From a virus, in the UHGV virus genome UHGV-0236227: a stretch of DNA of 30,354 nucleotides; one strand, written 5' to 3'. Under the pieces are notes generated by a model. It was not told the DNA's origin. It worked only from the letters and a program-made list of their open reading frames with translations, and did no database searches. This document shows, piece by piece, positions 8,716 to 29,676 of the stretch (within the stretch, counting starts at the first letter, position 1; every line of letters begins with the position of its first letter). The position numbers and the translations under genes were made by a program.

Positions 8716-8744
8716 TTGACATTTAACGCACTAATTATTACCTT
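8716..8744 (+). promoter_or_regulatory. Candidate promoter (TTGACA -35) overlapping a TTACC-N5-GGTAA palindrome, pointing toward the tRNA
   Basis: TTGACA at 8716..8721; the -10 element is not clean (TAATTA/TACCTT candidates). Confidence 0.35.
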
Positions 8745-8752
8745 TCAGGTAA
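8738..8752. promoter_or_regulatory. TTACC-N5-GGTAA palindrome (putative operator)
   Basis: TTACCTTTCAGGTAA; identical 15-mer recurs at 29281..29295. Confidence 0.45.
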
Positions 8753-9074
8753 GCAAAGAGTTCATTCCGGTTATTAACCTGACTGGCTTGTCGTTAAATT
8801 GAACAGGTGGGGTGAGCTTTTATTTTGAGCAGTACGGTGTATGGCACATGCGCCGATAGCGGTCTGGATACGTTTAAGGGGCACCCTCCCTTGCTCGGGC
8901 AAACGAACCAGGTAGCCGGAATGTGCAAGTCGAGCGGTTTTATTCCGCGCACGGGGATTCACCATCCCGGCGATTCGGTGTGACGCCTCGGAAGAGACGA
9001 GGGTACAACGATGAGAGCATTTATGGAGCCGCGACAAAGTGTGGTGCCTTAACAGGCTAAGTGCTCTCAGCGTT

Positions 9075-9151
9075 GTGGCATTAGCTCAGTTGGACAGAGC
9101 AACCGCCTTCTAAGCGGTTGGTCGCAGGTTCGAATCCTGCATGCCACGCCA
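9075..9151 (+). tRNA. tRNA-Arg (anticodon UCU), phage-encoded
   Basis: 77-nt cloverleaf folded by hand: 7-bp acceptor stem GTGGCAT/ATGCCAC, D-arm GCTC-AGTTGGACA-GAGC, anticodon stem ACCGC/GCGGT with loop CTTCTAA, T-arm GCAGG-TTCGAAT-CCTGC, encoded CCA end. Confidence 0.9.
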
Positions 9152-9194
9152 GAATCACGCCTAAGGACCGTGATGCCAGAAGTTCCAGGGGCTT

Positions 9195-9236
9195 GGCGGT
9201 GATGGTTTCCCTTGAAGGACTATCACCGCCCTTTTT
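9195..9236 (+). terminator. Intrinsic terminator after the tRNA
   Basis: 9-bp stem GGCGGTGAT/ATCACCGCC with an 18-nt loop, followed by CTTTTT. Confidence 0.55.
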
Positions 9237-9314
9237 ACAGCAGGACGCCATTGCGATGGCTTCATGCTGTAAACCAGTACAGCCACGGAAGGCATAACTC
9301 ATTGCTTCCAGTTC

Positions 9315-9339
9315 GCCCGGTTCGCCGGGCATTTTTTTA
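9315..9339 (+). terminator. Intrinsic terminator immediately upstream of the 118-aa ORF RBS
   Basis: GCCCGG-ttcg-CCGGGC hairpin followed by a run of 7 T. Confidence 0.55.
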
Positions 9340-9349
9340 AGGTGAGATT

Positions 9350-9706
9350 ATGAACGACCAGCAAATCGAAAAAGAAATCGCTGAGAAAGGCAAAACGGCA
9401 CCGCGAGTTACGCCCCAATATATCGAAAGCATCATTCTTGAAGAGCATTTCTTTACTGCTTATGACGGCATTCGTGCTGCCAATATGGGCGTTGGCGATT
9501 CATGGACAGCGCATAAATCTACAGACCTCCTGACTTTCTGCGTACTGGTGCTGAAGAATGGCTTCACCGTCACCGGAGAGAGCGCCTGTGCAAGCCCGGA
9601 AAACTTTGATGCAGAAATTGGTCGGAAGATTGCCCGGCAGAATGCTGTAAACAAAATCTGGATGCTTGAAGGTTACTTGCTGAAGCAGAAGTTAAGCGAG
9701 CAATAA
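9350..9706 (+). CDS. Small phage accessory protein (Gp49-like, tentative)
   Basis: 118-aa ORF with AGGTGA Shine-Dalgarno; opposite strand to flanking terminase and portal; family assignment is from recalled motifs only. Confidence 0.55.
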   Translation: MNDQQIEKEIAEKGKTAPRVTPQYIESIILEEHFFTAYDGIRAANMGVGDSWTAHKSTDLLTFCVLVLKNGFTVTGESACASPENFDAEIGRKIARQNAVNKIWMLEGYLLKQKLSEQ

Positions 9707-9710
9707 CACC

Positions 9711-9722
9711 GTGACATGTCAC
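9711..9722. repeat. Perfect 12-bp palindrome GTGACATGTCAC (copy 1), preceded by ATAACACC
   Basis: Read directly; second copy at 12165..12176 with the same ATAACACC context. Confidence 0.6.
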
Positions 9723-9726
9723 AAAC

Positions 9727-9753
9727 AGCCAGCCTATGAGCTGGCTTTGTTTT
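9727..9753 (+). terminator. Intrinsic terminator after the 118-aa ORF
   Basis: AGCCAGC-N6-GCTGGCT hairpin followed by TTGTTTT. Confidence 0.55.
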
Positions 9754-9796
9754 ATCCTCACCAGAGGATATCAACGACATTATCCCCACCAGCGGA

Positions 9797-11272
9797 TTAA
9801 GCATAGGGATCGTAATCTGTAATGGCCTTGCCTTGCTGGTTCTGCTGACCTGGAATTCGCAGACGCTTCGACACAGGGAAAGCAAACGTCAGCAATAGCG
9901 CATCGCCTTTACCCGGCGAACGCCCAAGACGCTCTTTGATATCTTCCTTCGGTTCGATAACGATTTTACCGTCCACACGAACTTTGTACTCTGCCGCCGA
10001 CAGGTCGTCTGCAGTTTCCTGGTCATCCAGCATGCCGCCCAGCCTCAGCCATGTCTTACATGAGTTGAACATCTCCCCACGCTTGTTAAGCATCTGCGGG
10101 TCAGTGGACGCACCGCCGAACGGAACAAGTTGCCATGTACGTCCCCAGCCATCACCGATTGACTTCAGACCGGTTCCGTAACCGAAGTCGATGAACACCG
10201 CGTCAGCCTGGTACTGGTCTTCAAAGTCAGCGATACGCTTCGCCATAATCAGATCGTCGGTGGTCTTGTTGCCGGTCCACAGCACCTTACTGTGCAGCCC
10301 CTGCCGCAGGTATATCACCGCGTCATCAACGCCTGAATATGCCGGGTCAACACCGATTATCACCGGAGCATGTGCAACCTGCGCAGCGGTTACCACCCGT
10401 TTCATTGCCTCGTCAGTAAGACCGGTAGGGATAAACTGCAATTCAGATGCATCAGGGAATATGCCACGCACACGGATTTTAACGAAGTCGCTATCTTCCC
10501 CGTAGTCATCAACCCATTTCTGCAACTGCTGTTTGTTGGTGCCTTCCACCGTCCTGCTGTCAATCTGCGCAGTTTTCCAGCGGTGTTTGTATTTGCGGAA
10601 ACATTCACGGAAACGCCCGGTGTTACGTGTAGGGTTTCCGAAAGCCACCCAGATAATCTCAGTGTCTTCGTCCGTTAGCGCACCCTCGGCAACTTCCCAC
10701 ACCAGATCCGCAATGTTCGACGCTTCATCAAATACCACGATGATGCGTTTACGCTCGTTGTGTAGTCCGGCGAATGCCTCAGTGTTGTGCTCAGACCAGG
10801 GGATTGCGTCAGCTCGCCACCGCTTGTCGTGCCCAGGGTCATTGCTGTACATCGCGGTAGCGGTACAGGTAAACCAGTCTTTCGTGATAGCAAGGTTTGA
10901 CCACTTGATAATTTCCGGCCAGGTCTTCGTTCGTAGCTGGTTGTCGGTGTTGGCGGTCACCACGACCTTACAATCCTCGCAAGTGGACATGCCCCAGTTG
11001 GTCAGCATTGAGATGAATGCGGATTTACCAATACCGTGACCAGAAGCACGTGCCAGCATAAGCGGCTGATATCGCGTCTCTGGATTCTGCAGGTGATCAC
11101 GTATCTCTCGGAACGCATCAGCCTGCCACTGACGTGGGCCGGTGGCATGTGCCAGTTCAGTCCCCTCTTCCCCCCATGGGAACGCATAGAGGGCATAGCC
11201 AAGCGGATCGTGAGTGAACCCTGCAATATCCTCGATTAACTGCTCTTCAGGAGATAACGCTGTATCTGTCAC
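9797..11272 (-). CDS. Terminase large subunit
   Basis: 491-aa ORF with Walker A-like ASGHGIGKS, Walker B-like IIVVFDEAS and a C-terminal acidic nuclease-like segment (VIIGVDPAYSG); ATGA coupling to the terS-like gene. Confidence 0.9.
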   Translation of the reverse strand: MTDTALSPEEQLIEDIAGFTHDPLGYALYAFPWGEEGTELAHATGPRQWQADAFREIRDHLQNPETRYQPLMLARASGHGIGKSAFISMLTNWGMSTCEDCKVVVTANTDNQLRTKTWPEIIKWSNLAITKDWFTCTATAMYSNDPGHDKRWRADAIPWSEHNTEAFAGLHNERKRIIVVFDEASNIADLVWEVAEGALTDEDTEIIWVAFGNPTRNTGRFRECFRKYKHRWKTAQIDSRTVEGTNKQQLQKWVDDYGEDSDFVKIRVRGIFPDASELQFIPTGLTDEAMKRVVTAAQVAHAPVIIGVDPAYSGVDDAVIYLRQGLHSKVLWTGNKTTDDLIMAKRIADFEDQYQADAVFIDFGYGTGLKSIGDGWGRTWQLVPFGGASTDPQMLNKRGEMFNSCKTWLRLGGMLDDQETADDLSAAEYKVRVDGKIVIEPKEDIKERLGRSPGKGDALLLTFAFPVSKRLRIPGQQNQQGKAITDYDPYA

Positions 11273-11868
11273 TGATTGCCATCCTGACGTTCTTTCAGTC
11301 TCTTCCTGGCTGCCGCTATGCGATCAGCAATTGTCACATTCACATTAACATCCAGGCGTTCTTTGAATGCGTTGACGTCGACGTGCTTACCAATCAGTTC
11401 GAGGTTCTTCACCTTGTCAGGCCATTTAATTTTTTTGAGGATGCCAACCAGCTCTTTCTCGTCTCCACGGCCTTCGAACATGTCGGCCAGTTCGAAACCT
11501 GTCAGGTACTGCCGCCAGACCTTAGGCCATTCCGAGACCGGCTTGATGCTCATATCGTCGTTGAGAATGTCAATCACGTCCATCTGGTCGATCTCCACCA
11601 GGCGCATGAGAACGTAATCAGCACTGACGCGCATTCGTTTGTTGCGCTCCTCCATCAACTCGGCAATCCGTTTTTGAATGCGTTCATCGCGCATCATGAC
11701 ACTGGCTTTAACTGCCGCTGTATTTGGGGAGAATCCTGCGTTAATCGCAGCCTGAGTCTGGTTTTCAGGCGTTTGGATGTATGACTGGCAATAAGCCTCC
11801 TGCATTGCTGTTAGTGGCTTAAATTGCGTTGATTTGCGTTTATAGGTTTTAGGTTCAGCAGGCATCAT
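11269..11868 (-). CDS. Terminase small subunit
   Basis: Directly upstream of and coupled to terL; conserved-looking core. Start uncertain: likely the internal ATG pair at 11868/11865 rather than the track start at 11946. Confidence 0.7.
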   Translation of the reverse strand: MMPAEPKTYKRKSTQFKPLTAMQEAYCQSYIQTPENQTQAAINAGFSPNTAAVKASVMMRDERIQKRIAELMEERNKRMRVSADYVLMRLVEIDQMDVIDILNDDMSIKPVSEWPKVWRQYLTGFELADMFEGRGDEKELVGILKKIKWPDKVKNLELIGKHVDVNAFKERLDVNVNVTIADRIAAARKRLKERQDGNQ

Positions 11869-11876
11869 AACCACCG

Positions 11877-11907
11877 TGGTAATAGTTACCGTTGTGGTAA
11901 TAGTACC
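11877..11907. repeat. Tandem copies of GTGGTAATAGT(T)ACC, each an inverted GGTAA...TTACC unit, just upstream of terS
   Basis: Two direct repeats 17 bp apart (11877..11890 and 11894..11907), between a terminator hairpin and the terS start codon. Confidence 0.45.
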
Positions 11908-11909
11908 AT

Positions 11910-11937
11910 GCAAAATAAAGCCGCCATAGTTGGCGGC
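11910..11937 (-). terminator. Intrinsic terminator upstream of the packaging and structural operon
   Basis: GCCGCCA-tagt-TGGCGGC hairpin followed on the minus strand by TTTATTTTG. Confidence 0.55.
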
Positions 11938-11942
11938 AGTAT

Positions 11943-12176
11943 TCAAAGTCCATCAAATTCATCGTAAAAACTCTCGTCAAGATACCCTTCCCATTTACCG
12001 CGAATGAAAATTACATCCTCGCCGCAAGGGTGCTGACTGTCGATAACTATATCCCTCCTGGCGCAACCATACTTATGCATGAGAAATTTAACCTCTTTCG
12101 GAAAATTTGCTGAGTTATCTCTCATATCTTCAAGGTCGTAGCGTATTTTTGGCATAACACCTTCGTGACATGTCAC
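11943..12176 (-). CDS. Hypothetical protein
   Basis: 77-aa ORF; start ambiguous (GTG at 12176 or ATG at 12155). Confidence 0.4.
   Translation of the reverse strand: MTCHEGVMPKIRYDLEDMRDNSANFPKEVKFLMHKYGCARRDIVIDSQHPCGEDVIFIRGKWEGYLDESFYDEFDGL
12165..12176. repeat. Perfect 12-bp palindrome GTGACATGTCAC (copy 2)
   Basis: Identical to 9711..9722, including the upstream ATAACACC. Confidence 0.6.
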
Positions 12177-12520
12177 ACTATTAATTTCGTTTCATGCCAG
12201 CCTTTAGTCACCCAGCATTGCGAGTCACCATTACACGGGCATGAATTAACGGGAACTCTCTCGCCGCACTTACCGCAAAGTTTTCTGCTGATCGATTTTA
12301 TACGCCCGCGCACACGTGCATCATCCTGGCGGATCAGCAGCGCGATGTACTCGGCCATTTCATAGGGATCGTGACCAGGGCGCCGGGCGGCGCAGTTCCG
12401 CGCCAGCATTTCCTGCTCCTGCTTATCCAGCACCAGTTCAATTTTGCGCTCACCAGCGGCGGACTGCCGAGCGCGCTGCGCGGCTTTGCGTTCTGCGGGG
12501 GATTTAGCCACGAATCGCAC
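12173..12520 (-). CDS. Cys-rich putative zinc-binding protein (candidate late-gene regulator or Lar-like protein)
   Basis: 115-aa ORF (GTG start in the track); basic N-terminus and C-terminal C-x2-C...C-x-C cluster (CGKCGERVPVNSCPCNGDSQC). Function is inferred from position upstream of terS. Confidence 0.45.
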   Translation of the reverse strand: MRFVAKSPAERKAAQRARQSAAGERKIELVLDKQEQEMLARNCAARRPGHDPYEMAEYIALLIRQDDARVRGRIKSISRKLCGKCGERVPVNSCPCNGDSQCWVTKGWHETKLIV

Positions 12521-12626
12521 TCCACGCCAGATTGATTAATGACTCCCAGGCAATATAAACCAGGATACCAGCAGCCAGGCCGAAACCAATCACCATGGCA
12601 TAAAGCAGAGCGTTGCGCTTGTTCAT
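12504..12626 (-). CDS. Small hydrophobic peptide (single predicted transmembrane helix)
   Basis: 40-aa ORF (MNKRNALLYAMVIGFGLAAGILVYIAWESLINLAWSAIRG) with a perfect AGGAGG Shine-Dalgarno 7 nt upstream; start overlaps the stop of the upstream gene (TAATG). Below the track's size cut-off. Confidence 0.4.
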   Translation of the reverse strand: MNKRNALLYAMVIGFGLAAGILVYIAWESLINLAWSAIRG

Positions 12627-13288
12627 TACTTCGCCTCCTGCGGCGGTTCCGGTAGCGGCATCCAGTGAGTTACGTCATCCAAGATATTTCCTGATAAATA
12701 CGTGAAAGCTCTATATTTTTTGTAATCAATTGGATTTACAACCCAGTTCCAATATGCGGCCACGATTTCACCTTGACTAAATGCCAGTAACATTTTGGTG
12801 TCTTCCGGCATTCGATCACTACAGCTTATCCAACCACCCGGAGTTACCGGAGAGTTGCCGCGTTCTTTAATGTGCAAGCGAGGCTCACCATCTTTTGGTT
12901 CAGGCCACTGGCGTTCCATGTTGATCTTCAATTTATTTTCCATAGCAGCGGTAATTTCAGCATCACTGATACCAGCACGGCGCTGTGCATCCCACAACAG
13001 AAACTGCATATCAGCCCACTCGCTAAGATCGTCTGGTTCGGCTGCGGCTTCCAGTGCCTCTTTTGAGAGATGTTTCAGCGGACCAATGGGGCCAACGCAG
13101 CCAAATGTGGAGTCAGACCATTTGGCATGCTCGTGGCGAATCTGTTCGCGTTCCAGTGAGGCGAGAGCGATTTTAAATGCTGTAAGCATGTGTGCTTGAT
13201 CGTTGTCGAGTCCGAATGGCATTTCATCTCGTGCTGACTCAATACTGGTAATCGTATTTTGTAGCCATTCTTTGGTAAAAGTGCTCAT
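12626..13288 (-). CDS. DUF550/DUF551-like phage protein (MazG-like pyrophosphohydrolase-type N-terminal domain, tentative)
   Basis: 220-aa ORF; recalled resemblance to DUF550 and DUF551 motifs (C-terminal THWMPLP). Confidence 0.55.
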   Translation of the reverse strand: MSTFTKEWLQNTITSIESARDEMPFGLDNDQAHMLTAFKIALASLEREQIRHEHAKWSDSTFGCVGPIGPLKHLSKEALEAAAEPDDLSEWADMQFLLWDAQRRAGISDAEITAAMENKLKINMERQWPEPKDGEPRLHIKERGNSPVTPGGWISCSDRMPEDTKMLLAFSQGEIVAAYWNWVVNPIDYKKYRAFTYLSGNILDDVTHWMPLPEPPQEAK

Positions 13289-14291: not shown

Positions 14292-14352
14292 CTTTACCCT
14301 CGCTTATCCACATAACTTATTGATTACATTGATAACTAAAAAGATCGTCGAT

Positions 14353-14961
14353 TCATGCCGATCTATTTTTCATCAGTGATTCATAAAACTTTTGCCACTT
14401 ATGCCGACCGAAATTAGCCTTCGAGTTACAGCTCGAACAAAGGCAAATAAGGTTCTCCTGACGACAGTCTTGCTTGTCGTAATTGATGTGATGAGTTGTT
14501 AGCCTTTTGTCTGTTCCATCACAACCTGGGTTCTGACAAGTAAAACCATCTCGCTCAATAACCCTCTTGCTCGTTTCTCGGAAATCCCACGGATACGGCA
14601 ATCTCGATAATCCACCAGACCAGTTTGGATTTCCTTCCCCCTTCATCAGAGAAGAACGCATTATGTTGGAACACTGTTTCGAGCAGCATTTATGACGCTT
14701 CTCATGACTCAAGAAAACGGAGAACGAAGATCCGCATACGCAGCATATTTTTAATACTCGCTTTAGTTCCCGATTTACCGTCTTGCCTCGCTGTGAAATT
14801 CCTACACACTGAAGTGAGCAGAACCTTGAAGATGAGTTGGCTCGCTTAACCTGATATTGCCTGCCACATACGGAACAAACCTTTTCGATTTTCCCACCCT
14901 TCCAATTCGGGTTTTTATCACCGGATACAATCAATCCCGCAGCATTGGGCTTCTCGCTCAT
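14353..14961 (-). CDS. HNH endonuclease
   Basis: 202-aa ORF with duplicated NPNW-GG...C-x-C-G modules and an HNH-type motif (HHINYDKQD...NLICLCSSCN). Confidence 0.7.
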   Translation of the reverse strand: MSEKPNAAGLIVSGDKNPNWKGGKIEKVCSVCGRQYQVKRANSSSRFCSLQCVGISQRGKTVNRELKRVLKICCVCGSSFSVFLSHEKRHKCCSKQCSNIMRSSLMKGEGNPNWSGGLSRLPYPWDFRETSKRVIERDGFTCQNPGCDGTDKRLTTHHINYDKQDCRQENLICLCSSCNSKANFGRHKWQKFYESLMKNRSA

Positions 14962-15311
14962 AGTTCCTCAACCTCCCATCCACCACCGAGCTTTTTAGGT
15001 TTTGGATAAGCAACCTGAAAGACAAACGGATAGCTGTCTGCCGCAACCTTCATCTTGACTCTCGCATCGTCAGTAAAGACTGACTTACTTCCCTTAACGT
15101 CCACCATCACCAACTGCCCGTCAGCCAACATCACGGCAAAATCTAAAGTCAGGAAGCAGTTGTCAGCTAACCGCAGCTTGATACCCTCGAATCGATACCA
15201 GGCGATTTCCCCTGCACGTTTACGCTGCTCAAGGTGCTGGCAATACGCAGATTCTGTTTTGTTCATCTGGCCTGTTTTGAGTCGACCAAGAGCCTGTATC
15301 TGTTTTCTCAT
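14958..15311 (-). CDS. DUF1064-like protein (putative nuclease/resolvase-like)
   Basis: 117-aa ORF; AGGGG Shine-Dalgarno; family assignment recalled, not computed. Confidence 0.45.
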   Translation of the reverse strand: MRKQIQALGRLKTGQMNKTESAYCQHLEQRKRAGEIAWYRFEGIKLRLADNCFLTLDFAVMLADGQLVMVDVKGSKSVFTDDARVKMKVAADSYPFVFQVAYPKPKKLGGGWEVEEL

Positions 15312-15314
15312 GAT

Positions 15315-15329
15315 TTACCCCTGAGGTAA
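15315..15329. promoter_or_regulatory. TTACC-N5-GGTAA palindrome (putative operator)
   Basis: TTACCCCTGAGGTAA; overlaps the RBS region of the downstream minus-strand gene. Confidence 0.45.
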
Positions 15330-15376
15330 TTAAAAACCACATAAGACACGAAATCAATAGATTTTAGAATATTTTA

Positions 15377-15391
15377 TTACCCAACAGGTAA
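15377..15391. promoter_or_regulatory. TTACC-N5-GGTAA palindrome (putative operator)
   Basis: TTACCCAACAGGTAA in the P-like / DUF1064-like intergenic region. Confidence 0.45.
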
Positions 15392-15428
15392 TCATCGAGA
15401 CGTAAAAAAATGCGCTATCGCGCTGGTA

Positions 15429-16977: not shown

Positions 16978-16992
16978 GATTAATCTCCGCTA

Positions 16993-17193: not shown

Positions 17194-17273
17194 GGTAAGC
17201 CCTGTTATTAGTATTGGGATTACGGTTATTTTGTGCTGACACAAAAAAAAGATCAACCAGATTTGGTTATTTA

Positions 17274-17288
17274 TTACCTTTGAGGTGC
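17274..17288. promoter_or_regulatory. TTACC-N5-GGTGC imperfect palindrome (putative operator)
   Basis: TTACCTTTGAGGTGC downstream of the Cro-like gene. Confidence 0.35.
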
Positions 17289-17343
17289 GAATAGATATGA
17301 AAAGACCGCCGGGTGGCGGTCTACAGAGGGTTGTGACTGGATA

Positions 17344-17574
17344 TCATGAGTAGAAGAAGTATGCCAGTTCTGCTTTTGAGCGCAGCCATTGTCTTGTTTT
17401 ACAGGCTTTAAAAAGCCCATTCATCAATACTTTACCTGGCATTTTGCGCTTACCTGTTAAGTGAGTCTGGATATAGTGACTCGTCGTTCCGGCTTCCTGT
17501 GCGAAGGCTTCACGCTCATCCGGAGTAAGTGCAAGCCAGTGCTTTTTGAAATCGAAATGTCCGTTATCGCTCAT
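17344..17574 (-). CDS. Cro-like HTH regulator (YdaS-like)
   Basis: 76-aa ORF divergent from the repressor-like gene; HTH-like segment (FAQEAGTTSHYIQTHLTGKR). Confidence 0.6.
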   Translation of the reverse strand: MSDNGHFDFKKHWLALTPDEREAFAQEAGTTSHYIQTHLTGKRKMPGKVLMNGLFKACKTRQWLRSKAELAYFFYS

Positions 17575-17610
17575 AGCTATTGCCTGATATTTATTTCAGA
17601 TAATAAATAT

Positions 17611-17673
17611 TCACCCATAAGGTAACAAAAATCAAGGATAGTTACCTATGAGGTGCATTTACCTGTTGGGTAA
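17611..17673. promoter_or_regulatory. Tripartite operator cluster in the cro / repressor intergenic region
   Basis: Three palindromes: TCACC-N5-GGTAA (17611..17625), TTACC-N5-GGTGC (17642..17656), TTACC-N5-GGTAA (17659..17673); centre spacings 31 and 17 bp. Confidence 0.6.
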
Positions 17674-17728
17674 TATTGCTTTAAATTGAATCATCTACTG
17701 ATTCATATATGAGGCGATTTTCCAGAAA

Positions 17729-18313
17729 ATGAAAAGTATCCAGGACGTCCGCAGGCAAAATCTCAACGACTTGATCGACCGTGAATTCAATGGTGTTCAG
17801 ACGCGGATGGCAGAAAAACTTGGAACTCAGGCAAATCTGGTAAACCGCTGGGCTCTTGGCAAGAAGGTTATCGGCGACCAGGTTGCACGAAAAATTGAAG
17901 CTGCCGCCAATAAACCCCGTAACTGGCTTGATATTGATCGTTCGCTTTCTCAGGAGGGTTTTCAGCCTGTCGGCCCGAGCGATATAGGTCAGTTGGCGGC
18001 TCACAACCTGGAACGCTGGATGAGCGAAAGCCGCGACCTTTCAACACAGGGAAAACTTCACCGCGCATCCGGCGTCGCCCAGGTGACAATCAGCCGCCTG
18101 TTAAACAATGAGGTCAGCGTTTCCATTTCCACTCTGGAGAATGTTGCATCCGCATTCGGGCGTCACGGATATGAACTACTGATTCACCCGCACGACCCTG
18201 CGACTATCAACTATGACCGCTCACGCTACGCATTGTTACCCGAAACCGAGAAAGCAAAGATCGAAAGTTACATTGAATTTGTCATCAACCAGAACGAAAA
18301 AAGCAAACAATAA
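17729..18313 (+). CDS. CI-like repressor candidate with two HTH-like segments and no recognisable S24 peptidase domain
   Basis: 194-aa ORF divergent from Cro-like gene; two XRE-type HTH-like segments; no Ser-Lys peptidase motifs recognised. Confidence 0.55.
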   Translation: MKSIQDVRRQNLNDLIDREFNGVQTRMAEKLGTQANLVNRWALGKKVIGDQVARKIEAAANKPRNWLDIDRSLSQEGFQPVGPSDIGQLAAHNLERWMSESRDLSTQGKLHRASGVAQVTISRLLNNEVSVSISTLENVASAFGRHGYELLIHPHDPATINYDRSRYALLPETEKAKIESYIEFVINQNEKSKQ

Positions 18314-18370
18314 AACTATAGTTTTCAGTAAGTAAGCCGCCTCATGGCGGCTTTTTTATTGCCAGATAGA

Positions 18371-18447
18371 TTACCTTACGGGTAATTTTTTTAACTCATA
18401 TCTATTGACACTAAACCAAATAAGCATAATTATTACCTCAACGGTAA
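18371..18447 (+). promoter_or_regulatory. pL-like promoter region with two TTACC-N5-GGTAA palindromes flanking a TTGACA -35 element
   Basis: Sites at 18371..18385 and 18433..18447; TTGACA at 18405..18410; directly upstream of the recombination operon. Confidence 0.5.
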
Positions 18448-18466
18448 CAGACCGAGGTAACAAGTT

Positions 18467-19826: not shown

Positions 19827-20849
19827 ATGTCTATCAATGCACTTAAGGCAGCGGCTACCGGTAACCAAGTTGCACATCATAATGAGAAACCAACAACTCT
19901 GGCCGGACTTCTGGCAGACCCAAAAATTAAAGCTCAGATGGCTTTGGCACTTCCAAAGCACATGACAGCAGACCGTCTGGCGCGCATAGCAACCACAGAG
20001 ATCAGAAAGGTTCCAAAACTTGCATCATGCGACCAAGCCAGCTTCCTGGGGGCAATTATGCAATGTGCCCAATTGGGTCTTGAACCAGGCGGAGCTCTTG
20101 GACACGCTTACCTGATACCGTTCGACAAACGCCAGAAAGTAAATGGAAGATGGGAAACCGTATCTACAGAAGCACAGCTGATTATCGGCTATCGCGGAAT
20201 GATTGACCTTGCCCGCCGCTCTGGGCAGATCCTGAGTATCTCGGCTCGTACCGTACATACAAACGACAAATTCAGCTACTCATACGGCCTGGAAGAAACG
20301 CTCGAGCATTTACCTTGCGAAACAGGTGACCGCGGAGAATTAACGCACGTTTACGCCGTTGCACGACTGAAAGATGGCGGAGTCCAATTTGAAGTTATGA
20401 GCCGGGCAGACGTTGAGAAAGTTCGTGCACTGAGCAAAGCCGGTAGCAGTGGCCCATGGGTTGATCACTTCGATGAGATGGCTAAAAAAACAGTAATTCG
20501 CCGACTGTTCAAATATCTTCCTGTTTCTATTGAAATGCAGAAGGCTGTTGTTATGGATGAGCGCGCTGAAGCTGGACTTAGCCAAGATAACGCAGCTGTT
20601 ATCACTGGTGAATATTCCGTAGTTGACGATGAGCGTCAACACCTGTCGCCAATTTCAGATTCAGAACGAGAAGAAGCTCGAGAATATATCATCGCGATAC
20701 TTAATAGCCTGGATCCATCTGCTGAAGATGCAAAAACGATGTTCAAGCGCGCTGAAAATGAAATTAACACCATGGCTGAAAAGCTCGGTGATGAATATCA
20801 CCAAAAATTCATGATGACGCTTAACGATATGCGTCCAGAATTCGAGTAA
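19827..20849 (+). CDS. recT: RecT-family single-strand annealing protein
   Basis: 340-aa ORF with AAGGAG Shine-Dalgarno; RecT-like core (GYRGMIDLARRSGQI); paired with the YqaJ exonuclease. Confidence 0.85.
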   Translation: MSINALKAAATGNQVAHHNEKPTTLAGLLADPKIKAQMALALPKHMTADRLARIATTEIRKVPKLASCDQASFLGAIMQCAQLGLEPGGALGHAYLIPFDKRQKVNGRWETVSTEAQLIIGYRGMIDLARRSGQILSISARTVHTNDKFSYSYGLEETLEHLPCETGDRGELTHVYAVARLKDGGVQFEVMSRADVEKVRALSKAGSSGPWVDHFDEMAKKTVIRRLFKYLPVSIEMQKAVVMDERAEAGLSQDNAAVITGEYSVVDDERQHLSPISDSEREEAREYIIAILNSLDPSAEDAKTMFKRAENEINTMAEKLGDEYHQKFMMTLNDMRPEFE

Positions 20850-20898
20850 CCACCACCGCGGCGCCACGTGCGCCGCACTGCAACCAAGAGAGGTATTC

Positions 20899-22390: not shown

Positions 22391-22393
22391 ACG

Positions 22394-23644: not shown

Positions 23645-23686
23645 AATTCACCCGTATAGAAACCATTTTCATGACGGTATGAGAGT

Positions 23687-23701
23687 ATACCTTTAAGGTA
23701 A
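23687..23701. promoter_or_regulatory. ATACC-N5-GGTAA palindrome (putative operator) upstream of int
   Basis: ATACCTTTAAGGTAA, 43 bp upstream of the integrase start. Confidence 0.4.
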
Positions 23702-23754
23702 TACCGTCACCTGTACCGACGAAAAATATGGTGTATAGTGAATAGAAATGAATA

Positions 23755-23788
23755 CATAAAAACAAAAACCCTCTGTAAAAACAGAGGG
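23755..23788 (-). terminator. Intrinsic terminator after the lysis cassette
   Basis: CCCTCTGT-aaaa-ACAGAGGG hairpin with a U-rich tract downstream on the minus strand. Confidence 0.55.
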
Positions 23789-23938
23789 TTAAATTAGTAT
23801 CTGAATAGGAATGAGTTGCTATGAGTTAGCTGTTAATCATTCCCACTCAATTATTTACGATAACCATAACCAATTGAGTGATAACATTTTTCCAAATCTC
23901 AATTTTTCCCGTACCGTTTTATATACCGTCACCGGAAA

Positions 23939-25062: not shown

Positions 25063-25360
25063 GTTTAGACCTCGATACTTTAAAAATTTGAACGACGTTA
25101 CCGCGCGTTTTAATAACCGCAGCCAGCATGACAGCGTTGATAATGACCTCAGATAAATCCACAGCCATTGGCGTACGTAACCAGATTGCATAGGCGACTC
25201 GAACAGGAATACTGGCCGCAGCAACAATCAGGAAATAAGCAAGCCATCCTCCCCACCTTCGATGTTGAGAGCCGTTACGCCGGAATGTGACAACGCGAAT
25301 TGCTATGCCAGTGCAAATAACTGCATTGGTGATAAGCAAAAAAAACTCATGCGTTACCAT
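25052..25360 (-). CDS. Holin-like membrane protein (second holin or antiholin candidate)
   Basis: 102-aa hydrophobic ORF between the holin and the endolysin, overlapping both. Confidence 0.5.
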
Positions 25361-25751
25361 CGTCTTTTCTCCCCGGAATTAACTCGCGTGGATTATCGGA
25401 ACGGTGATAGAGCCATATACCAATACGCACAGCGACAATTGCTGACACGAATGCGCCTGCAGAGAAAACAATCCCTTTTTCAAAAGAGTCCTGCGTGATG
25501 GTAGGGATCAGGCTGGCTATGCCGATAAGAATTGATGCTGCTGGTTTGTAAAAGAGAAGGCCGCAAAGAAAGCTGAGCATCGACAGGAGCACCCGGCGAC
25601 GGATGGGGTACTCTACTGCAGAGGTAACAAAAATTACCGCCCCAGCCAAAGCCCCTAAAGCAACCTCCGGAGGGGCACCTGCAATAACCGCAGCAAGAGA
25701 ACTAAAACTAAGCAACTGATTTAATTGCTCACTTGTTACTTGAGCAGACAT
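25347..25751 (-). CDS. Holin
   Basis: 134-aa ORF with several hydrophobic segments; first gene of the lysis cassette. Confidence 0.6.
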   Translation of the reverse strand: MSAQVTSEQLNQLLSFSSLAAVIAGAPPEVALGALAGAVIFVTSAVEYPIRRRVLLSMLSFLCGLLFYKPAASILIGIASLIPTITQDSFEKGIVFSAGAFVSAIVAVRIGIWLYHRSDNPRELIPGRKDDGNA

Positions 25752-25925
25752 ACTTTCTCCTGTTTACTATCTATAAGCCAGTCAATTATTGATGACTAAA
25801 CCCGCATAGTAAACCATATATGAATCATTATTGTTCCATATCATATATCTCAATAAAAGTACTAATGATTTTACAGAACGAGCCAGCAGAGTGGGGGCAG
25901 TTGTACAGGAACCATAGACTTAATT

Positions 25926-25954
25926 TTGTATTTAATAATGCTATGGTGTAATAA
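25926..25954 (+). promoter_or_regulatory. Candidate sigma70-like promoter (TTGTAT-17-TAATAA) in an AT-rich spacer
   Basis: Hexamers read directly; a plus-strand terminator lies about 100 bp downstream. Confidence 0.3.
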
Positions 25955-26032
25955 ACCTGAACATGTATTTAAAATACGTACTGATTCATGATAGAATTCA
26001 AAGATAACTTTTCACAAACTCCGTTTTTGATA

Positions 26033-26058
26033 CCCGCAAAATATTGCGGGCTTTTTTT
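26033..26058 (+). terminator. Intrinsic terminator (CCCGCAA-aata-TTGCGGG plus 7 T) at the 3' end of the tailspike gene
   Basis: Canonical only in the plus orientation; the T-run overlaps the tailspike stop codon. Confidence 0.5.
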
Positions 26059-29000
26059 AACGTTCTTCCAGAGACTGAATCCGCTCTTTTATCTTATCCA
26101 TTTCTCTGCGCTGCCATGCTGCCTCGATATAGAATAAGAGATCAGGCCTGACCCCCCATCTAGATCCTGCTGGCGTTATTTCAACGCGCTCAATGATGTC
26201 TTCCATTACCATCACTGGATTATCATCCTCATCAACAATGATGCTCCCGTCATTATCAGTCAGCGGCATTTCCCTTTGGCCAGTAATGACGTCATCATAT
26301 ACTGCGGGATAATCGTCATAGCAAAGAAAGGCATAGCGGCATGTTGTGCTTTCTTCTTCCATGAGTCCGTGAGAAATAAGAACATCACGAAGTTGCTGCG
26401 CGATTACACCATGATGTATCCTCGCCCCTTCTTCCCCCTTTATAGCGACAGCGTTCAGCCATTTATAAGCGATATACCTGACGTCACCCCAGGCATCCAG
26501 CAATGCTTCGTCAGGAGAGACCGGCTCTGTCTTTAATGTTCCGTCACTGGTAACCACAGGATTGGAGCCAAGATAAACTGTCGAGAACCTGTTTCCCGGA
26601 CCACCAAGAGCATTTACATTATCAAGATAAGGTTTAACATCTCCGTTCTCAAAAAGATGTTCGAGTGCGTTATATACCGCGCGACGTGGAGTACTGCTTC
26701 CGGAACCATGCAACGTTATCATTGCACCATCTGCTGAAGACGTTGTTTCACCGCCGCTAACGATTAATCTCTGAGCGGTAACATCATCAGACGGTACTTT
26801 CTTCGCAATAATGGCGTAATTACCCTCAAGTTTGACTTCCGCGCGAACTTGTCCTGATGTACCTGCATGGACAGTCAGTGACTGGACGGCAACATCATCT
26901 GTGAAATCAACGGGTACAGGAACCGTCCTCACGCCTGACGTCGACATAAAAGTAGGAAGCGTTCTGTTAGGAGTGGCTCCGTAGACAAAATCCCTTGAAA
27001 CAAATTCTTCCTGTTTGATTTTCACCCTGAAACAATATAAATCAGCCGGGTGACCATCGTGAACATAAGGATATTTTCTGTTGTTATCCCCTATGCTCCA
27101 TGGGTTTAGAAAGTCTTCCCCACCGAAAATGTAGTACAGCCAGTTGTCTTTGATACAAACTGAACCAACACCAACCGCAGAGTTAACTATTCCGCCCTGA
27201 TAAATCTGATCAGTAACATTAACCCACTCTACATTATCCAGACTCCACTCATTGACGTTAACTCTGGTCATAAATGTTCTTGGATAATTTCCTGCATAAC
27301 GGTTATCAGGTTCTCCTCCTTCCCACTCACCAAATGCGCGCTCACTGCCAAAAATAATCAGCTCATCGCCAACTTTGGCAAAAGGAAGGTTTGAGTGATG
27401 AACATTATTTGGGAAGCGAAGAGAATTCCATGATGTACCTAAATCAGAGCTTCTGTGCAATGAACTACCGGGTTGAGTACTTAATGTCCCCCTGGTCGTC
27501 AGATACAGAATGCCATCATAATATTTTACACATGGCTCAGATGCATTCGCCTCATATTCTGCAGGTATGCGTCTGCGAACAAAGCTACCAGGAGAACCGA
27601 AAGCATCAGAGAAATAGAGTATCCCAAGCTCGCGTGGACCAATATCACCATTATGGTAGCCAACAGCAAAACTGTTATCGCTAATCGTCGCAAAACTGTG
27701 AATCTCAGTAACAGGAGTGCTTCCGTCAACAAAAGAAGGAATAGTTCCAAGACTGGTTTTTCTCCATGGTGACGAGTGAAATGATGTACCAAAACTCCAG
27801 TATCTACCCTCGTTATTCTGATCCACATCCTGGGTATTTTGCGTCGTAACTGTAAAAGTATTTTTATCAATAACAGTAGTCACCGTCATATTCCCGGTAA
27901 CACCTGTAACACCAGAGTTTGAGAAGTTGACAAAATCACCAGCAAATAATCCGTGATCAGTAATGCGAATATAAGCGACTTGCTGATTTGCTGCTTTCGT
28001 TATACCACCATAAGCGCGAAGGCTGCGACTCATTGGGCGATCCCACAACTCTGCAACCTGCAGTTTATTTCCGCTCACGGTCCGCGTCTCAATTACAGCA
28101 AAAAGGCGATTTCTGACAACCCCCATACTCATGCAGTGATAGTTAACTGTGGGATAGTTTTCATGTAAATCTGTAAGCCATTCCGGCGTTGTCCAGGTCT
28201 TCCCGTCATCTCCTGAGCGAACCCATGCAACATGGAGGTTATTTACACCATGGCGGTCTCCAGCCATAAAAGGCGCATAGATGACATTGTCATATACAAA
28301 CGTTTTATCCTGCGTCCAGGCGTTGTACCACGGTGTATCTGTAATTTTAAATAACTCTCCCTGGATAAAATCTTCAGAAGCATAAAAAAGAGGCTGGCCC
28401 GGTATTCTCTCAAATAAAAAACGAGCATTTTTAAATCGACTGACATCCGGAAGAGTTGATACTTTAAAAGTAAGCCCTAATCCGTCAATTTTATAACCTG
28501 GAGATGAGGCTTCAAGGCACGCGCTTATTGCAGTGGAATCGTCATTTATACCATCACCAACAGCTCCAAAATCTTTGGGGCTAATAGCATCACGCATTTT
28601 ATCCTGGAACGTTCGGTACACAGCCCCAGAACCATACTGAATAAACCAACCAAAACCACCAACAACCCCGGCGATTGCAGCATCGACATAATTACGCATT
28701 GAGCGATTATTTACAGCGTCCTGCTCAAATGATGGATCTGCAAGGTTAGAAATTTTGTTTTGCTTTGCATCGTAATATTTTGCAAGCAAAGATGGTTTCA
28801 TCAATGCACGTCTGAACCACCCAAAACATTGCTGGATCAGCATCGTCAGGTAGTCAAAGGCATCTTCATGCACTTCTGGGAAAAATTTTCCCTGATTGCG
28901 AAGGTCTGTCTCCTGCACTACATCAAGCACACGATCTATCGTAATTCGCCATCCAGTAGCAAGCGGAGACGGAAGAACCACAGAACCGCCACTATAAGTG

Positions 29001-29176
29001 CCCGCCCCAGTTACCGTATAACCGGTATCCAGAACCAATTCTGTTACGTTTCCGTTCAGGTCAGACACCTGAACAACCAGGTCTGATTTTCTGAAAATTC
29101 GAAAAGTATACGGAAACGATGTCGTAACGCCGTTACCTGTGTATTCGTTGTGGTCAACTTCGGTTGAGACCGTCAT
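26057..29176 (-). CDS. Tailspike / tail fibre with T7 gp17-like N-terminus, Asp-box beta-propeller-like centre and C-terminal intramolecular chaperone domain (endosialidase-like)
   Basis: 1039-aa ORF with GGAG Shine-Dalgarno; N-terminal particle-binding-like region; two Asp-box motifs (SGDDGKTW, SSDLGTSW); DFGAVGDG-type motif; C-terminal chaperone-like tail. Confidence 0.8.
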   Translation of the reverse strand: MTVSTEVDHNEYTGNGVTTSFPYTFRIFRKSDLVVQVSDLNGNVTELVLDTGYTVTGAGTYSGGSVVLPSPLATGWRITIDRVLDVVQETDLRNQGKFFPEVHEDAFDYLTMLIQQCFGWFRRALMKPSLLAKYYDAKQNKISNLADPSFEQDAVNNRSMRNYVDAAIAGVVGGFGWFIQYGSGAVYRTFQDKMRDAISPKDFGAVGDGINDDSTAISACLEASSPGYKIDGLGLTFKVSTLPDVSRFKNARFLFERIPGQPLFYASEDFIQGELFKITDTPWYNAWTQDKTFVYDNVIYAPFMAGDRHGVNNLHVAWVRSGDDGKTWTTPEWLTDLHENYPTVNYHCMSMGVVRNRLFAVIETRTVSGNKLQVAELWDRPMSRSLRAYGGITKAANQQVAYIRITDHGLFAGDFVNFSNSGVTGVTGNMTVTTVIDKNTFTVTTQNTQDVDQNNEGRYWSFGTSFHSSPWRKTSLGTIPSFVDGSTPVTEIHSFATISDNSFAVGYHNGDIGPRELGILYFSDAFGSPGSFVRRRIPAEYEANASEPCVKYYDGILYLTTRGTLSTQPGSSLHRSSDLGTSWNSLRFPNNVHHSNLPFAKVGDELIIFGSERAFGEWEGGEPDNRYAGNYPRTFMTRVNVNEWSLDNVEWVNVTDQIYQGGIVNSAVGVGSVCIKDNWLYYIFGGEDFLNPWSIGDNNRKYPYVHDGHPADLYCFRVKIKQEEFVSRDFVYGATPNRTLPTFMSTSGVRTVPVPVDFTDDVAVQSLTVHAGTSGQVRAEVKLEGNYAIIAKKVPSDDVTAQRLIVSGGETTSSADGAMITLHGSGSSTPRRAVYNALEHLFENGDVKPYLDNVNALGGPGNRFSTVYLGSNPVVTSDGTLKTEPVSPDEALLDAWGDVRYIAYKWLNAVAIKGEEGARIHHGVIAQQLRDVLISHGLMEEESTTCRYAFLCYDDYPAVYDDVITGQREMPLTDNDGSIIVDEDDNPVMVMEDIIERVEITPAGSRWGVRPDLLFYIEAAWQRREMDKIKERIQSLEER

Positions 29177-29280
29177 GTTAAATCTCCAGATAGTCGCAGC
29201 ACCCGTTGCGCCGCATATCTGGTTATTCTATTACCTGAAAAACCACATATGGATAGAAAGACTGTAAATATGAATAGATA

Positions 29281-29295
29281 TTACCTTTCAGGTAA
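29281..29295. promoter_or_regulatory. TTACC-N5-GGTAA palindrome (putative operator) in the divergent tailspike / small-ORF region
   Basis: TTACCTTTCAGGTAA, identical to the site at 8738..8752. Confidence 0.45.
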
Positions 29296-29332
29296 TTTGC
29301 AAAACGTGCTGGATAGCAAACAAATTATTTGC

Positions 29333-29352
29333 TACTGTATAAATATACAGTT
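29333..29352. promoter_or_regulatory. LexA (SOS) box
   Basis: TACTGTATAAATATACAGTT, i.e. CTGT-N8-ACAG with AT-rich spacer; 21 bp upstream of the small-ORF ATG. Confidence 0.6.
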
Positions 29353-29372
29353 ATTGCATGGAGAAGATTAAG

Positions 29373-29630
29373 ATGCAGCAGTATCACTATCCACTGGAAG
29401 ACGGATTTACCGAAAGGATTCACACGCCGGGAGGCGTCAGGTCACTGGTGGAGGGATCGCACTTGATGAAATTACTCCGGGATCTCGATAAGGATGGATT
29501 TAATGTCGATGGCCCACTTGCCGAACTGACTGCACTGATTAACTACGTCACCAGCTCACAGATGTCTATGCAGGATCTGCAAACACATCTCGACTATTGT
29601 GCCGAACAATTACGAAAGCAAACCAGATAA
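29373..29630 (+). CDS. LexA-controlled small protein (Tum-like antirepressor candidate)
   Basis: 85 aa from ATG 29373 with GGAG Shine-Dalgarno at 9 nt (track start 29358 lies inside the promoter region); LexA box immediately upstream. Confidence 0.5.
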   Translation: MQQYHYPLEDGFTERIHTPGGVRSLVEGSHLMKLLRDLDKDGFNVDGPLAELTALINYVTSSQMSMQDLQTHLDYCAEQLRKQTR

Positions 29631-29661
29631 GGTTTGCAATTACCAAGTGGAGTGTTTATTA

Positions 29662-29676
29662 TTACCTTTGCGGTAA
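29662..29676. promoter_or_regulatory. TTACC-N5-GGTAA palindrome (putative operator)
   Basis: TTACCTTTGCGGTAA, 32 bp after the small-ORF stop. Confidence 0.45.

Follow-up and report, generated by a model that had tools for sequence, protein, structure and literature searches.

Why does a 15-bp palindrome, TTACC-N5-GGTAA, recur in the intergenic regions all along a phage genome, and which protein would bind it? The question came from a sequence-only reading of the virus genome UHGV-0236227 (30,354 nt, the whole of which was analysed and is called the window below). That reading reported at least 12 copies lying exclusively in non-coding intervals, considered those far from the presumed repressor gene unusual for a lambdoid phage, and proposed both a count against shuffled sequence with one mismatch allowed and a comparison of coding with intergenic DNA.

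Abundance and position of the palindromes

Exact copies of TTACC-N5-GGTAA (TTACCNNNNNGGTAA) number nine in the window as opposed to 0.00 expected from 100 dinucleotide shuffles, and 12 copies (the nine exact ones plus three) are found at up to one mismatch, where 0.44 are expected and no shuffle gave more than 2. Two further conserved sites, at 17274 and 17642, have GGTGC as their right half and thus carry two mismatches each. All 14 sites are intergenic although non-coding DNA makes up just 8.95% of the window in our own gene map; the remaining sixteen two-mismatch matches all fall within coding DNA. Shuffling restricted to the intergenic sequence predicts 0.13 sites at up to one mismatch (maximum 2 in 2000 shuffles) instead of the 12 seen. 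An origin by chance or base composition is ruled out by the whole-window and intergenic shuffles.

The earlier count was therefore sound and even slightly low. Copies are exact at 8738, 15315, 15377, 17659, 18371, 18433, 29281 and 29662, carry one mismatch at 17611 and 23687, and need two at 17274 and at the middle one of three copies next to the repressor gene, which is indeed present and whose exact position is 17642..17656. Two copies had been overlooked, at 11886 (exact) and 11868 (one mismatch), while the two identical 15-mers that had been noticed are those at 8738 and 29281. The two half-sites are perfectly palindromic, without orientation, and the flanks show a preference for A at -1 and T at +1.

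The same sites in related phages

The window phage is a podovirus of the epsilon15/phiV10 type (Uetakevirus), about 97% identical to published E. coli phages, and not a lambdoid phage as had been assumed. Five relatives were compared with it: phiV10, epsilon15, SPC32H, Tyrion and BUCT711. Each of them contains 13-18 motif matches at up to one mismatch, in positions like those of the window, with a shuffle expectation of about 0.5 per genome (computed for Tyrion and BUCT711). In alignments the half-sites are invariant, whereas the flanks and the N5 spacer vary. The epsilon15 record AY150271.2 annotates the 17-mer ATTACC-N5-GGTAAT as 'repressor' protein_bind at seven places, an annotation that may be purely predictive; by alignment, the annotated sites are orthologous to window sites as follows.

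epsilon15 12..27, 'repressor', opposite window 11886
epsilon15 2931..2947, 'repressor', opposite window 8738
epsilon15 19895..19911, 'repressor', opposite window 29281
epsilon15 32554/32616, 'repressor', opposite window 18371/18433
epsilon15 35906, 'repressor', opposite window 15377

Since dispersed sites occur in every group member examined and are annotated in epsilon15, the scattered copies are the rule and not unusual for this type of phage. What looked like an oddity is an ordinary, family-wide feature, and the dispersed operators are largely known already from the annotation of the sister phage. Both phages have the identical sequence at the same dispersed positions (terS, gp3/portal operon, ant/tailspike, OL side, post-replication genes) and a homologous repressor, but the window repressor is only 43% identical to that of epsilon15. 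A scan of epsilon15 gives 11 exact sites, two unannotated OR copies among them, beyond the seven annotated, compared with the 14 sites of the window. Unlike epsilon15, the window has no site upstream of the holin cluster, and the divergent conversion genes are missing there too; it has an extra site before an isrK/C4/Bro locus that is missing from epsilon15 and SPC32H. SPC32H shares the motif and its positions with the window. A full-text literature search for the motif string gave no match, and the epsilon34 paper makes no statement on epsilon15 operators.

Could the palindromes work in RNA, as hairpins providing RNase III or attenuator signals, rather than as protein-binding sites in DNA? 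A hairpin of 5-6 bp is possible at each site, and an RNase III annotation in epsilon15 overlaps the int-proximal copy. However, these hairpins are weak (-3.5 to -4.2 kcal/mol), and the stem letters are constant throughout 56 exact sites from six genomes, leaving no compensatory pairs. Nor does the N5 spacer lengthen the stem, positions 6:10 being complementary in 18/56 sites and positions 7:9 in 11/56. The base at the dyad centre is A or T in 38 of 38 exact sites (four genomes), and several sites lie upstream of predicted start sites. The weak folds and the lack of stem covariation lead us to reject this explanation, which we regard as extremely improbable.

Rep as the probable ligand

The two clusters of sites flank a gene for a 194-aa protein:

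17729..18313, plus strand, rep, repressor of 194 aa, full-length match to 5d50_A

This protein is a homologue of SPC32H Rep (PDB 5D50, 5d50_A; E=3.5e-42, residues 1-190), with an N-terminal HTH DNA-binding domain, a middle HTH_3-like dimerisation domain and a C-terminal domain for tetramerisation and Ant binding. A Pfam search of Rep returned HTH families only and no Peptidase S24 autocleavage domain. SPC32H Rep is a tetramer that binds palindromic sites (PMC9638917), and its C-terminal domain has a tetramerisation fold of the DNA-looping type built on Phe187/Phe190 (PMC9986798). The C-terminal half of the window Rep aligns to the tetramerisation/Ant-binding region of SPC32H, with Tyr and Phe in the places of these two residues. 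In phage ZX5, whose repressor is 99.5% identical to the window Rep, repressor overexpression reduced lysis-gene transcripts by >99.9%; that study showed repressor function and left the operator undefined (PMC9782041).

The palindromes are thus very probably the operators of the phage's own Rep, a repressor of the SPC32H/epsilon15 type. At each site, two N-terminal HTH domains would each contact one TTACC half-site, the distance between the half-site centres being 10 bp. The sequence-only reading had likewise suggested repressor sites, and the clusters on either side of the 194-aa gene do look like OR- and OL-type operators with Rep as their likeliest ligand. Among the relatives, Rep is 43-99% identical to the window protein, and the NLVNRW helix (residues 36-41) is invariant in four Rep clades; because these clades share one half-site, covariation of protein and site within the genus shows no contrast. 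A partial substitute is found farther away, in the Pseudomonas phage PseuP_224, whose cI is a distant homologue of the Rep DNA-binding domain and is flanked by TTACC-N4-GGTAA palindromes that occur nowhere else in its genome. This lambda-type OR/OL arrangement resembles that of the window in its homologous N-terminal HTH, its TTACC half-site and its operators on both sides of the repressor gene, but differs from it in the N4 spacer, an autocleavable S24-type cI, the restriction of the sites to the immunity region and the presence of a Q antiterminator gene, whereas no gene is annotated as an antiterminator in phiV10, epsilon15 or SPC32H.

Probable operators around rep

Five sites surround rep together with the first gene of the early-right unit and the early-left promoter.

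17322..17303, terminator after the cro-like gene
17344..17574, minus strand, cro-like gene, 76 aa, opening the early-right unit
17611..17625, OR operator nearest the cro-like gene, one mismatch (TCACCCATAAGGTAA)
17642..17656, middle OR operator, two-mismatch variant (TTACCTATGAGGTGC)
17659..17673, OR operator nearest rep, exact (TTACCTGTTGGGTAA), conserved in six phages
18371..18385, OL distal operator, exact, 19 bp upstream of the early-left -35
18405..18433, plus strand, predicted early-left promoter TTGACA-17-AATTAT, 10/12 consensus matches
18433..18447, OL proximal operator, exact, beginning at the last base of the -10 and covering the predicted start site

The three OR operators (17611, 17642, 17659) occupy the interval from 17574 to 17729 between the divergent cro-like and rep genes. 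The first sits between an invariant -35, TTGATT (17635..17630, minus strand), and the -10 of a putative rightward early promoter, and the orthologue of the middle one is an exact TTACC-N5-GGTAA in epsilon15, SPC32H and BUCT711. The left half of the third coincides with a possible rep -35 (TTACCT-17-TAAATT), one of several -35/-10 combinations that fit the sequence for the rep maintenance promoter. On the OL side, the two operators are 62 bp apart, centre to centre, and enclose a promoter of which CTATTGAC and (A/G)ATTAT are invariant in six phages.

In lambda-type switches, Cro and CI use common operators. The window has the same three operators between divergent repressor and cro-like genes; however, its operators are not confined to OR and OL, since 9 of the 14 lie elsewhere, and its Rep is without a domain for RecA-stimulated autocleavage (Peptidase S24). 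The sites might, then, be bound mainly or only by another phage protein, such as the 76-aa Cro-like protein, which would shut down the early, ant and int promoters during lytic growth, leaving Rep to OR and OL. The Cro-like protein has no Pfam match but is 58-100% identical across the six phages, i.e., even better conserved than Rep; it contains an invariant HTH-like segment, AGTTSHYIQ.HLT, and could also be a ligand of these sites. Against an exclusive role for it, the TTACC half-site accompanies the Rep-type DNA-binding domain even in a Pseudomonas siphovirus whose genome is otherwise different, and the epsilon15 record attributes the sites to the repressor. We consider such a role unlikely. 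Sharing of the sites by Rep and the Cro-like protein, in turn, fits with operators of Rep and is not an alternative to them; a second protein, as had been contemplated earlier, is not needed to account for the outlying copies.

Probable operators outside OR and OL

Seven of the outlying sites are listed here, and the two near the antirepressor genes below.

8738..8752, tRNA/head divergent-region operator, exact, single site
11868..11882, small-terminase second operator, one mismatch, 18 bp from the first
11886..11900, small-terminase first operator, exact
15315..15329, post-P module, proximal operator, exact, abutting the -10, 62 bp from the distal operator
15377..15391, post-P module, distal operator, exact, after the P-unit terminator
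17274..17288, pre-replication weak variant, TTACCTTTGAGGTGC, two mismatches, after the cro-like terminator
23687..23701, pre-int site, one mismatch, 43 bp upstream of int

The post-P pair encloses a putative minus-strand promoter, TTGATT-17-TTTAAT (15357..15329), and its proximal member contains the ribosome-binding site of the DUF1064 gene (14958..15311). At the small-terminase gene, the first operator comes immediately after a conserved extended -10, TGnTACTAT (minus strand, ~11908..11900), and a terminator (11937..11920), and the second ends just before the start region of the gene (ATGATG, start taken at ~11865). Both would be within an open reading frame only with the TTG start taken over from the phiV10 annotation; the alignment with epsilon15, SPC32H and Tyrion places the start at the ATG at ~11865, so that 11868 and 11886 are intergenic and the annotated start is corrected.

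The 8738 operator is located in the region from which the head/portal operon (minus strand) and the tRNA-Arg/gp49_66 unit (plus strand) diverge. It shares bases with the -10 position of TTGACA(8716-8721)-17-TACCTT, a promoter-like sequence directed at the tRNA; GTCAA in this region is invariant in the six phages. The 17274 site, upstream of the replication unit and 5 nt from the palindrome AACCAAATCTGGTT, is weak in the window, and nCACC/TACC-N5-GGTAAT is conserved at its position in six phages. The GGTAT deviation of the 23687 site is identical in 6/6 phages; this site is embedded in an inverted repeat, GACGGTAT...ATACCGTC, within an 89%-conserved attP-proximal stretch, and for the int-proximal copy of epsilon15 an adjoining Int arm site is annotated along with the overlapping RNase III site. 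Of all 14 sites, this one is assigned to Rep with the least certainty.

The antirepressor loci

The right end of the window combines two operators with two antirepressor loci.

29281..29295, ant/tailspike operator, exact, in a 181-bp divergent control region
29335..29350, LexA box CTGTATAAATATACAG, 7 nt upstream of the ant start codon, conserved in six phages
29358..29630, plus strand, ant, small SPC32H-type antirepressor (5d50_E, E=4.4e-47)
29662..29676, isrK-locus operator, exact, abutting the -10 of a putative promoter
29713-29789, plus strand, isrK-like sRNA, Rfam 67.7 bits, above the gathering score
29814-29897, plus strand, C4 antisense RNA, Rfam 66.0 bits, above the gathering score

The 29281 operator lies 1 bp before a TTGCAA -35-like hexamer facing ant, for whose promoter several -35/-10 combinations fit the sequence, and 29 nt upstream of a late element facing the tailspike gene; this operator and that at 8738 are located at ~-70 and ~-82, respectively, from late-type promoter elements. 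The putative promoter at the last operator, TTGCAA(29634-29639)-17-TATTAT(29657-29662), points into isrK, the C4 RNA and the gene of a Bro-type antirepressor. Downstream of the 29662 operator, isrK and C4 (29713..29897) form an anti-immunity locus like immI of phage P1.

The window thus possesses full-length homologues of both partners of the SPC32H Rep-Ant switch (PDB 5D4Z/5D50) and the LexA box, but its E. coli Rep clade differs from SPC32H Rep at 57% of positions and it has the immI-like locus as a second antirepressor locus. By analogy with SPC32H, Rep would not be cleaved but would form tetramers that are inactivated by the LexA-controlled antirepressor Ant.

Placement at predicted promoters and proposed mode of repression

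The sites occur at the starts of transcription units, after terminators, and adjoin conserved -35/-10-like hexamers. Intrinsic terminators probably split the genome into numerous short transcription units that have promoters of their own, and Rep would keep the prophage silent by sitting at or near almost every one of these promoters. The predicted layout comprises the OR triplet between the cro-like gene and rep, a 62-bp module of two operators at the early-left promoter and an identical one downstream of gene P, a pair at the terminase promoter, single sites at tRNA/head, at ant/tailspike and before the isrK-C4-antirepressor locus, and weak variants preceding int and the replication unit. 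Five of these promoters have an operator that abuts or overlaps their -10, so that RNA polymerase would be occluded there. The promoter-enclosing pairs of the window (OL, post-P) are spaced by exactly 62 bp, and over six genomes this spacing is kept with invariant -35/-10 blocks in 11/12 pairs; one Rep tetramer probably holds both sites of each pair, looping the DNA between them.

The dispersal had earlier been likened to mycobacteriophage stoperators. Those of L5 and Bxb1 are asymmetric, oriented with transcription and located within operons, where they stop elongation. Scattered bound repressor might similarly block elongating RNA polymerase in the window rather than initiation: as in those phages, short intergenic regions outside the immunity region hold more than ten repressor sites, dispersed genome-wide, and those at 11868/11886, 15377 and 17274 follow terminators, past which upstream transcription could read through. 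The likeness nevertheless fails, as the window sites are palindromic, neither asymmetric nor oriented, and lie at operon starts, every one next to promoter-like hexamers. None is found inside the structural operon (~8.6 kb) or the early-left operon (~4 kb), and within-operon gaps of at least 30 bp (3876-3919, 4704-4754, 12521-12625, 14292-14352, 20850-20898) contain no sites. From these empty gaps and the alignments, roadblocks of this kind were rejected and appear very unlikely.

A closer parallel is phage P1, whose C1 operators are asymmetric 17-mers dispersed over the genome, among them Op51 before c4-icd-ant in immI. Because the window sites are at promoters after terminators and not inside operons, their arrangement resembles that of the C1 operators and not that of stoperators. 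As in P1, one repressor would directly control many separate promoters, with induction via antirepressors, and a C4 RNA and antirepressor locus is preceded by a predicted repressor-controlled promoter (29662); the window operator is, however, palindromic, and the likeness is a working analogy and not membership.

If Rep is indeed the ligand, a single repressor, itself under antirepressor control, directly gates nearly all transcription units. The 14 sites provide a full predicted operator map for the phiV10 group, phages that infect E. coli O157 and have no operators in their GenBank records, and the promoter modules could be used in engineering phiV10 reporter phages or in reading the induction of such prophages. 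The mechanism of repression by SPC32H-type Rep 'has not been extensively characterized' (PMC9986798), and the conserved 62-bp pairs are a concrete DNA substrate on which to study how the tetramer represses.

A second palindrome and a possible basis of immunity specificity

A second, distinct palindrome is present as well, with the consensus AACCATATATGGTT, seen as CATATNNGGTT.

Tentatively, the control programme of these phages can be pictured in two layers, with Rep at every promoter clamping the 62-bp pairs, an activator acting through the second palindrome, and specificity conferred by Ant-Rep pairing. In the first layer, tetrameric Rep may enclose a whole promoter in a micro-loop; the 62-bp module is conserved at two promoters in six phages spanning four Rep clades. 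In the second, AACCATATATGGTT may mark the replication, head, tailspike and lysis units as targets of a putative phage activator, which may replace the lambda-type N/Q antitermination cascade. Finally, as Rep proteins that are 43% identical have one operator specificity in common, immunity specificity might lie in the pairing of Ant with Rep and not in DNA recognition.

Copy number and placement of the palindrome

The palindrome TTACC-N5-GGTAA is present in nine exact copies in the window vs 0.00 expected from shuffled sequence, and in 12 copies with up to one mismatch vs 0.44 expected (largest shuffled count, 2). Two further copies, at 17274 and 17642, both carry a GGTGC right half. On a gene map combining long ORFs with the phiV10 annotation, only 8.95 % of the window is intergenic, and shuffling of the intergenic DNA alone predicts 0.13 sites; all 14 sites lie there, and the remaining sixteen two-mismatch matches all fall in coding DNA. 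The enrichment and the confinement to non-coding DNA proposed by the sequence-only reading are thus borne out, and the shuffle counts exclude a chance origin of the palindromes. The positions it listed are right, except that the start of the middle copy in OR (the sites between the cro-like gene and rep) was wrong and that the sites at 11868 and 11886 were left out. These two count as coding only when the ORF is extended to the upstream TTG derived from phiV10. Alignment with epsilon15, SPC32H and Tyrion places the small-terminase start at a conserved ATG near 11865, which is likely the true one. In the phiV10 record, the annotated CDS opens with a TTG, and a terminator tail, a -10 element and the two operators all come after that codon (window 11866-11946; phiV10 record 41-110).

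Relatives, repressor and operator specificity

The phage was taken to be lambdoid, but nucleotide identity identifies it as a Uetakevirus-type podovirus: it shares about 97 % identity across most of its length with the E. coli Uetakevirus podoviruses phiV10 (whose record runs in the reverse orientation), phiv142-3, ZX5, PAS61 and TL-2011b, and about 78 % with Salmonella phage epsilon15. The regulators concerned are as follows.

17729..18313, rep, encoding the 194-aa protein Rep; full-length alignment to SPC32H Rep (5d50_A, E=3.5e-42)
29335-29350, perfect LexA box CTGTATAAATATACAG, 7 nt upstream of the ant start codon
29358..29630, ant, counterpart of the SPC32H small antirepressor Ant (5d50_E, E=4.4e-47)

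No S24 peptidase domain was found in the window Rep. In the GenBank record of epsilon15 (AY150271.2), seven protein_bind features labelled 'repressor / lysogeny' are all ATTACC-N5-GGTAAT; they occur ahead of terS, ahead of gp3, in the gap between gp19 (ant) and the tailspike gene, on the OL (early-left promoter) side (three) and after the replication genes (one), with window counterparts at 11886, 8738, 29281, 18371/18433 and 15377. The phiV10 record holds no repressor-site features. An excess of the motif is also seen in phiV10, epsilon15, SPC32H, Tyrion and BUCT711: each genome has 13-18 matches at up to one mismatch vs about 0.5 expected (shuffles computed for Tyrion and BUCT711 only). In ten alignments of orthologous intergenic regions (A1-A8, A11, A12), the half-sites never change, in contrast to the N5 spacer and most flanks. 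The centre base is A or T in all 38 exact sites of four genomes, with an A/T preference at -1/+1, and the spacer lacks self-complementarity in the 56 exact sites obtained when Tyrion and BUCT711 are added (six genomes). As RNA hairpins the palindromes would be weak (-3.5 to -4.2 kcal/mol) and no compensatory changes were seen, so this explanation was rejected.

Rep falls into four clades, with 99 % (E. coli), 76-78 % (Enterobacter), 45 % (Klebsiella) and 43 % (Salmonella) identity to the window protein. The hexapeptide NLVNRW, within the predicted recognition helix, is invariant across them, and the comparison shows a putative operator specificity common to all four. A more distant case is the Pseudomonas siphovirus PseuP_224, whose cI is of the S24 type and shares 39 % identity, in its N-terminal domain, with Rep residues 4-68. 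TTACC-N4-GGTAA palindromes lie on both sides of this gene (four matches vs 0.26 expected) and nowhere else in the 43-kb genome.

PseuP_224 10906-10945, putative cI-flanking operators, TTACC-N4-GGTAA
PseuP_224 11768-11820, putative cI-flanking operators, TTACC-N4-GGTAA

Compared with the window, these sites have the identical half-site and a spacer shortened by one base, and they stay within the immunity region. Since the palindromes flank a cI with a related HTH, the TTACC half-site appears to track this DNA-binding-domain family, and dispersal is, by this comparison, a Uetakevirus trait. The same association speaks against the Cro-like protein as sole binder of the sites; their sharing by the Cro-like protein and Rep would fit a Rep-operator system.

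Promoter modules and proposed mode of repression

Intrinsic terminators, including invariant hairpins in alignments A1 and A6, split the genome after rep, the cro-like gene and gene P, and at the end of the early-right unit. Downstream of each terminator lies one site or a pair with promoter-like hexamers.

OL: operator, 19 bp, TTGACA, 17 bp, AATTAT, second operator from the last base of the -10
Post-gene-P, minus strand: OL-like layout, TTGATT-17-TTTAAT
Upstream of terS: conserved extended -10 TGnTACTAT, then directly two operators 18 bp apart
OR: three sites, with the cro-like-proximal one inside the rightward promoter, flanked by its -10 and its invariant -35 TTGATT
8738: operator overlapping the -10 position of a TTGACA promoter facing tRNA-Arg(TCT) and a gp49_66-family gene
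29662: operator abutting TTGCAA-17-TATTAT, facing an isrK-like sRNA, a C4 antisense RNA and a Bro-type antirepressor gene

The likeness to stoperators that had been suggested fails on symmetry, position and promoter context: a gap scan and the alignments place no site within any operon, and the sites are symmetric and associated with promoter-like hexamers. The most economical reading is that one repressor would occlude RNA polymerase at many promoters in the classical mode. What the ZX5 study (PMC9782041) demonstrates on this point is confined to the loss of lysis-gene transcription when a repressor near-identical to the window Rep is overexpressed.

In the OL and post-P modules, 11 of the 12 pairs across six genomes have a centre-to-centre spacing of 62 bp, and one has 63 bp. 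SPC32H Rep is a tetramer when bound to palindromic sites, with pairs of DNA-binding domains drawn from different dimers (PMC9638917), and its C-terminal domain has a looping-type tetramerisation fold (PMC9986798). Because, in addition, the aromatic interface residues are conserved in the aligned window Rep, a single tetramer could well hold both operators of a 62-bp pair.

The proximal post-P operator includes the ribosome-binding site of the DUF1064 gene. At OL (18433-18460), a third GGTAA half-site, GAGGTAAC (~18453-18460), follows the proximal operator to give TTACCTC-N14-GAGGTAA; it also provides a ribosome-binding site for the first early-left gene and is kept in phiV10 and Tyrion. The tRNA-Arg(TCT) gene (9075-9151, plus strand) overlaps the ORF 9081..9332 (minus strand), counterpart of phiV10p04, and this opposite-strand overlap makes the hypothetical protein doubtful.

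Two anti-immunity loci

Ant of SPC32H is reportedly SOS-controlled, with which the LexA box preceding ant, kept in six phages, agrees. A second exact CTGT-N8-ACAG match, CTGTAAACCAGTACAG (9267-9282), 68 bp upstream of the gp49_66-family gene 9350..9706, could be another LexA box or could be fortuitous. Two RNAs lie back to back in the interval that separates ant from the Bro-type antirepressor gene.

29713-29789, plus strand, isrK-like Hfq-binding sRNA (Rfam)
29814-29897, plus strand, C4 antisense RNA (Rfam)

The phiV10 record marks part of this stretch only as misc_feature and terminator. The layout resembles P1/P7 immI and the Gifsy-1 isrK locus, and the phage would thus possess a second anti-immunity system besides ant.

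Relation to known systems

The system is assigned to the epsilon15/SPC32H Rep-operator family, of which it shows four of the five defining features, physical binding by Rep being predicted. Functionally it resembles the P1 C1 regulon, with scattered operators, control by antirepressors and a putative repressor-controlled promoter ahead of a C4 RNA locus, but it does not belong to that family. Beyond the epsilon15 annotation, the analysis contributes a full map of 14 sites for the phiV10 group, the conserved 62-bp module that flanks promoters and the operator ahead of the isrK/C4 locus; these gains are incremental and would be no surprise to anyone specialised in such phages.

Less certain sites and a second motif

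Three sites are less certain. The one at 29281 may act on either of two promoters: within the 181-bp divergent region that separates ant from the tailspike gene, it is 1 bp ahead of an ant-facing TTGCAA hexamer and 29 nt upstream of a late-type element that faces the tailspike gene. The site at 23687 has a single deviation, GGTAT, the same in all six phages, and sits inside a larger inverted repeat, GACGGTAT...ATACCGTC (23676-23712); conservation among these phages is 89 % over the attP-proximal stretch preceding int, and in epsilon15, where Int arm-type, IHF and RNase III sites are annotated there, its counterpart adjoins an Int arm site and overlaps an RNase III site. The third, 17274, is a two-mismatch variant adjoining another palindrome.

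Besides the operators, the window carries a second conserved motif, CATATNNGGTT (four matches vs 0.19 expected), itself part of a palindrome with consensus AACCATATATGGTT.

8686-8696, minus strand, second motif
25812-25822, minus strand, second motif
29241-29251, minus strand, second motif
~17258-17271, minus strand, variant

The copies precede the head/portal, lysis and tailspike operons, with the variant preceding the replication unit, and each points the same way as the genes that follow it; epsilon15 and SPC32H have the motif at exactly four orthologous positions. A late or middle activator may bind there, or the motif may form the core of a late promoter.

Upstream of the holin cluster, the operator of the relatives is absent from the window, as are the divergent serotype (O-antigen) conversion genes; this joint absence suggests that the relatives' site serves the divergent promoter and not the lysis genes. 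The stretch 25752-26056 there is unrelated to its phiV10 and epsilon15 counterparts, yet retains the CATATATGGTT element.
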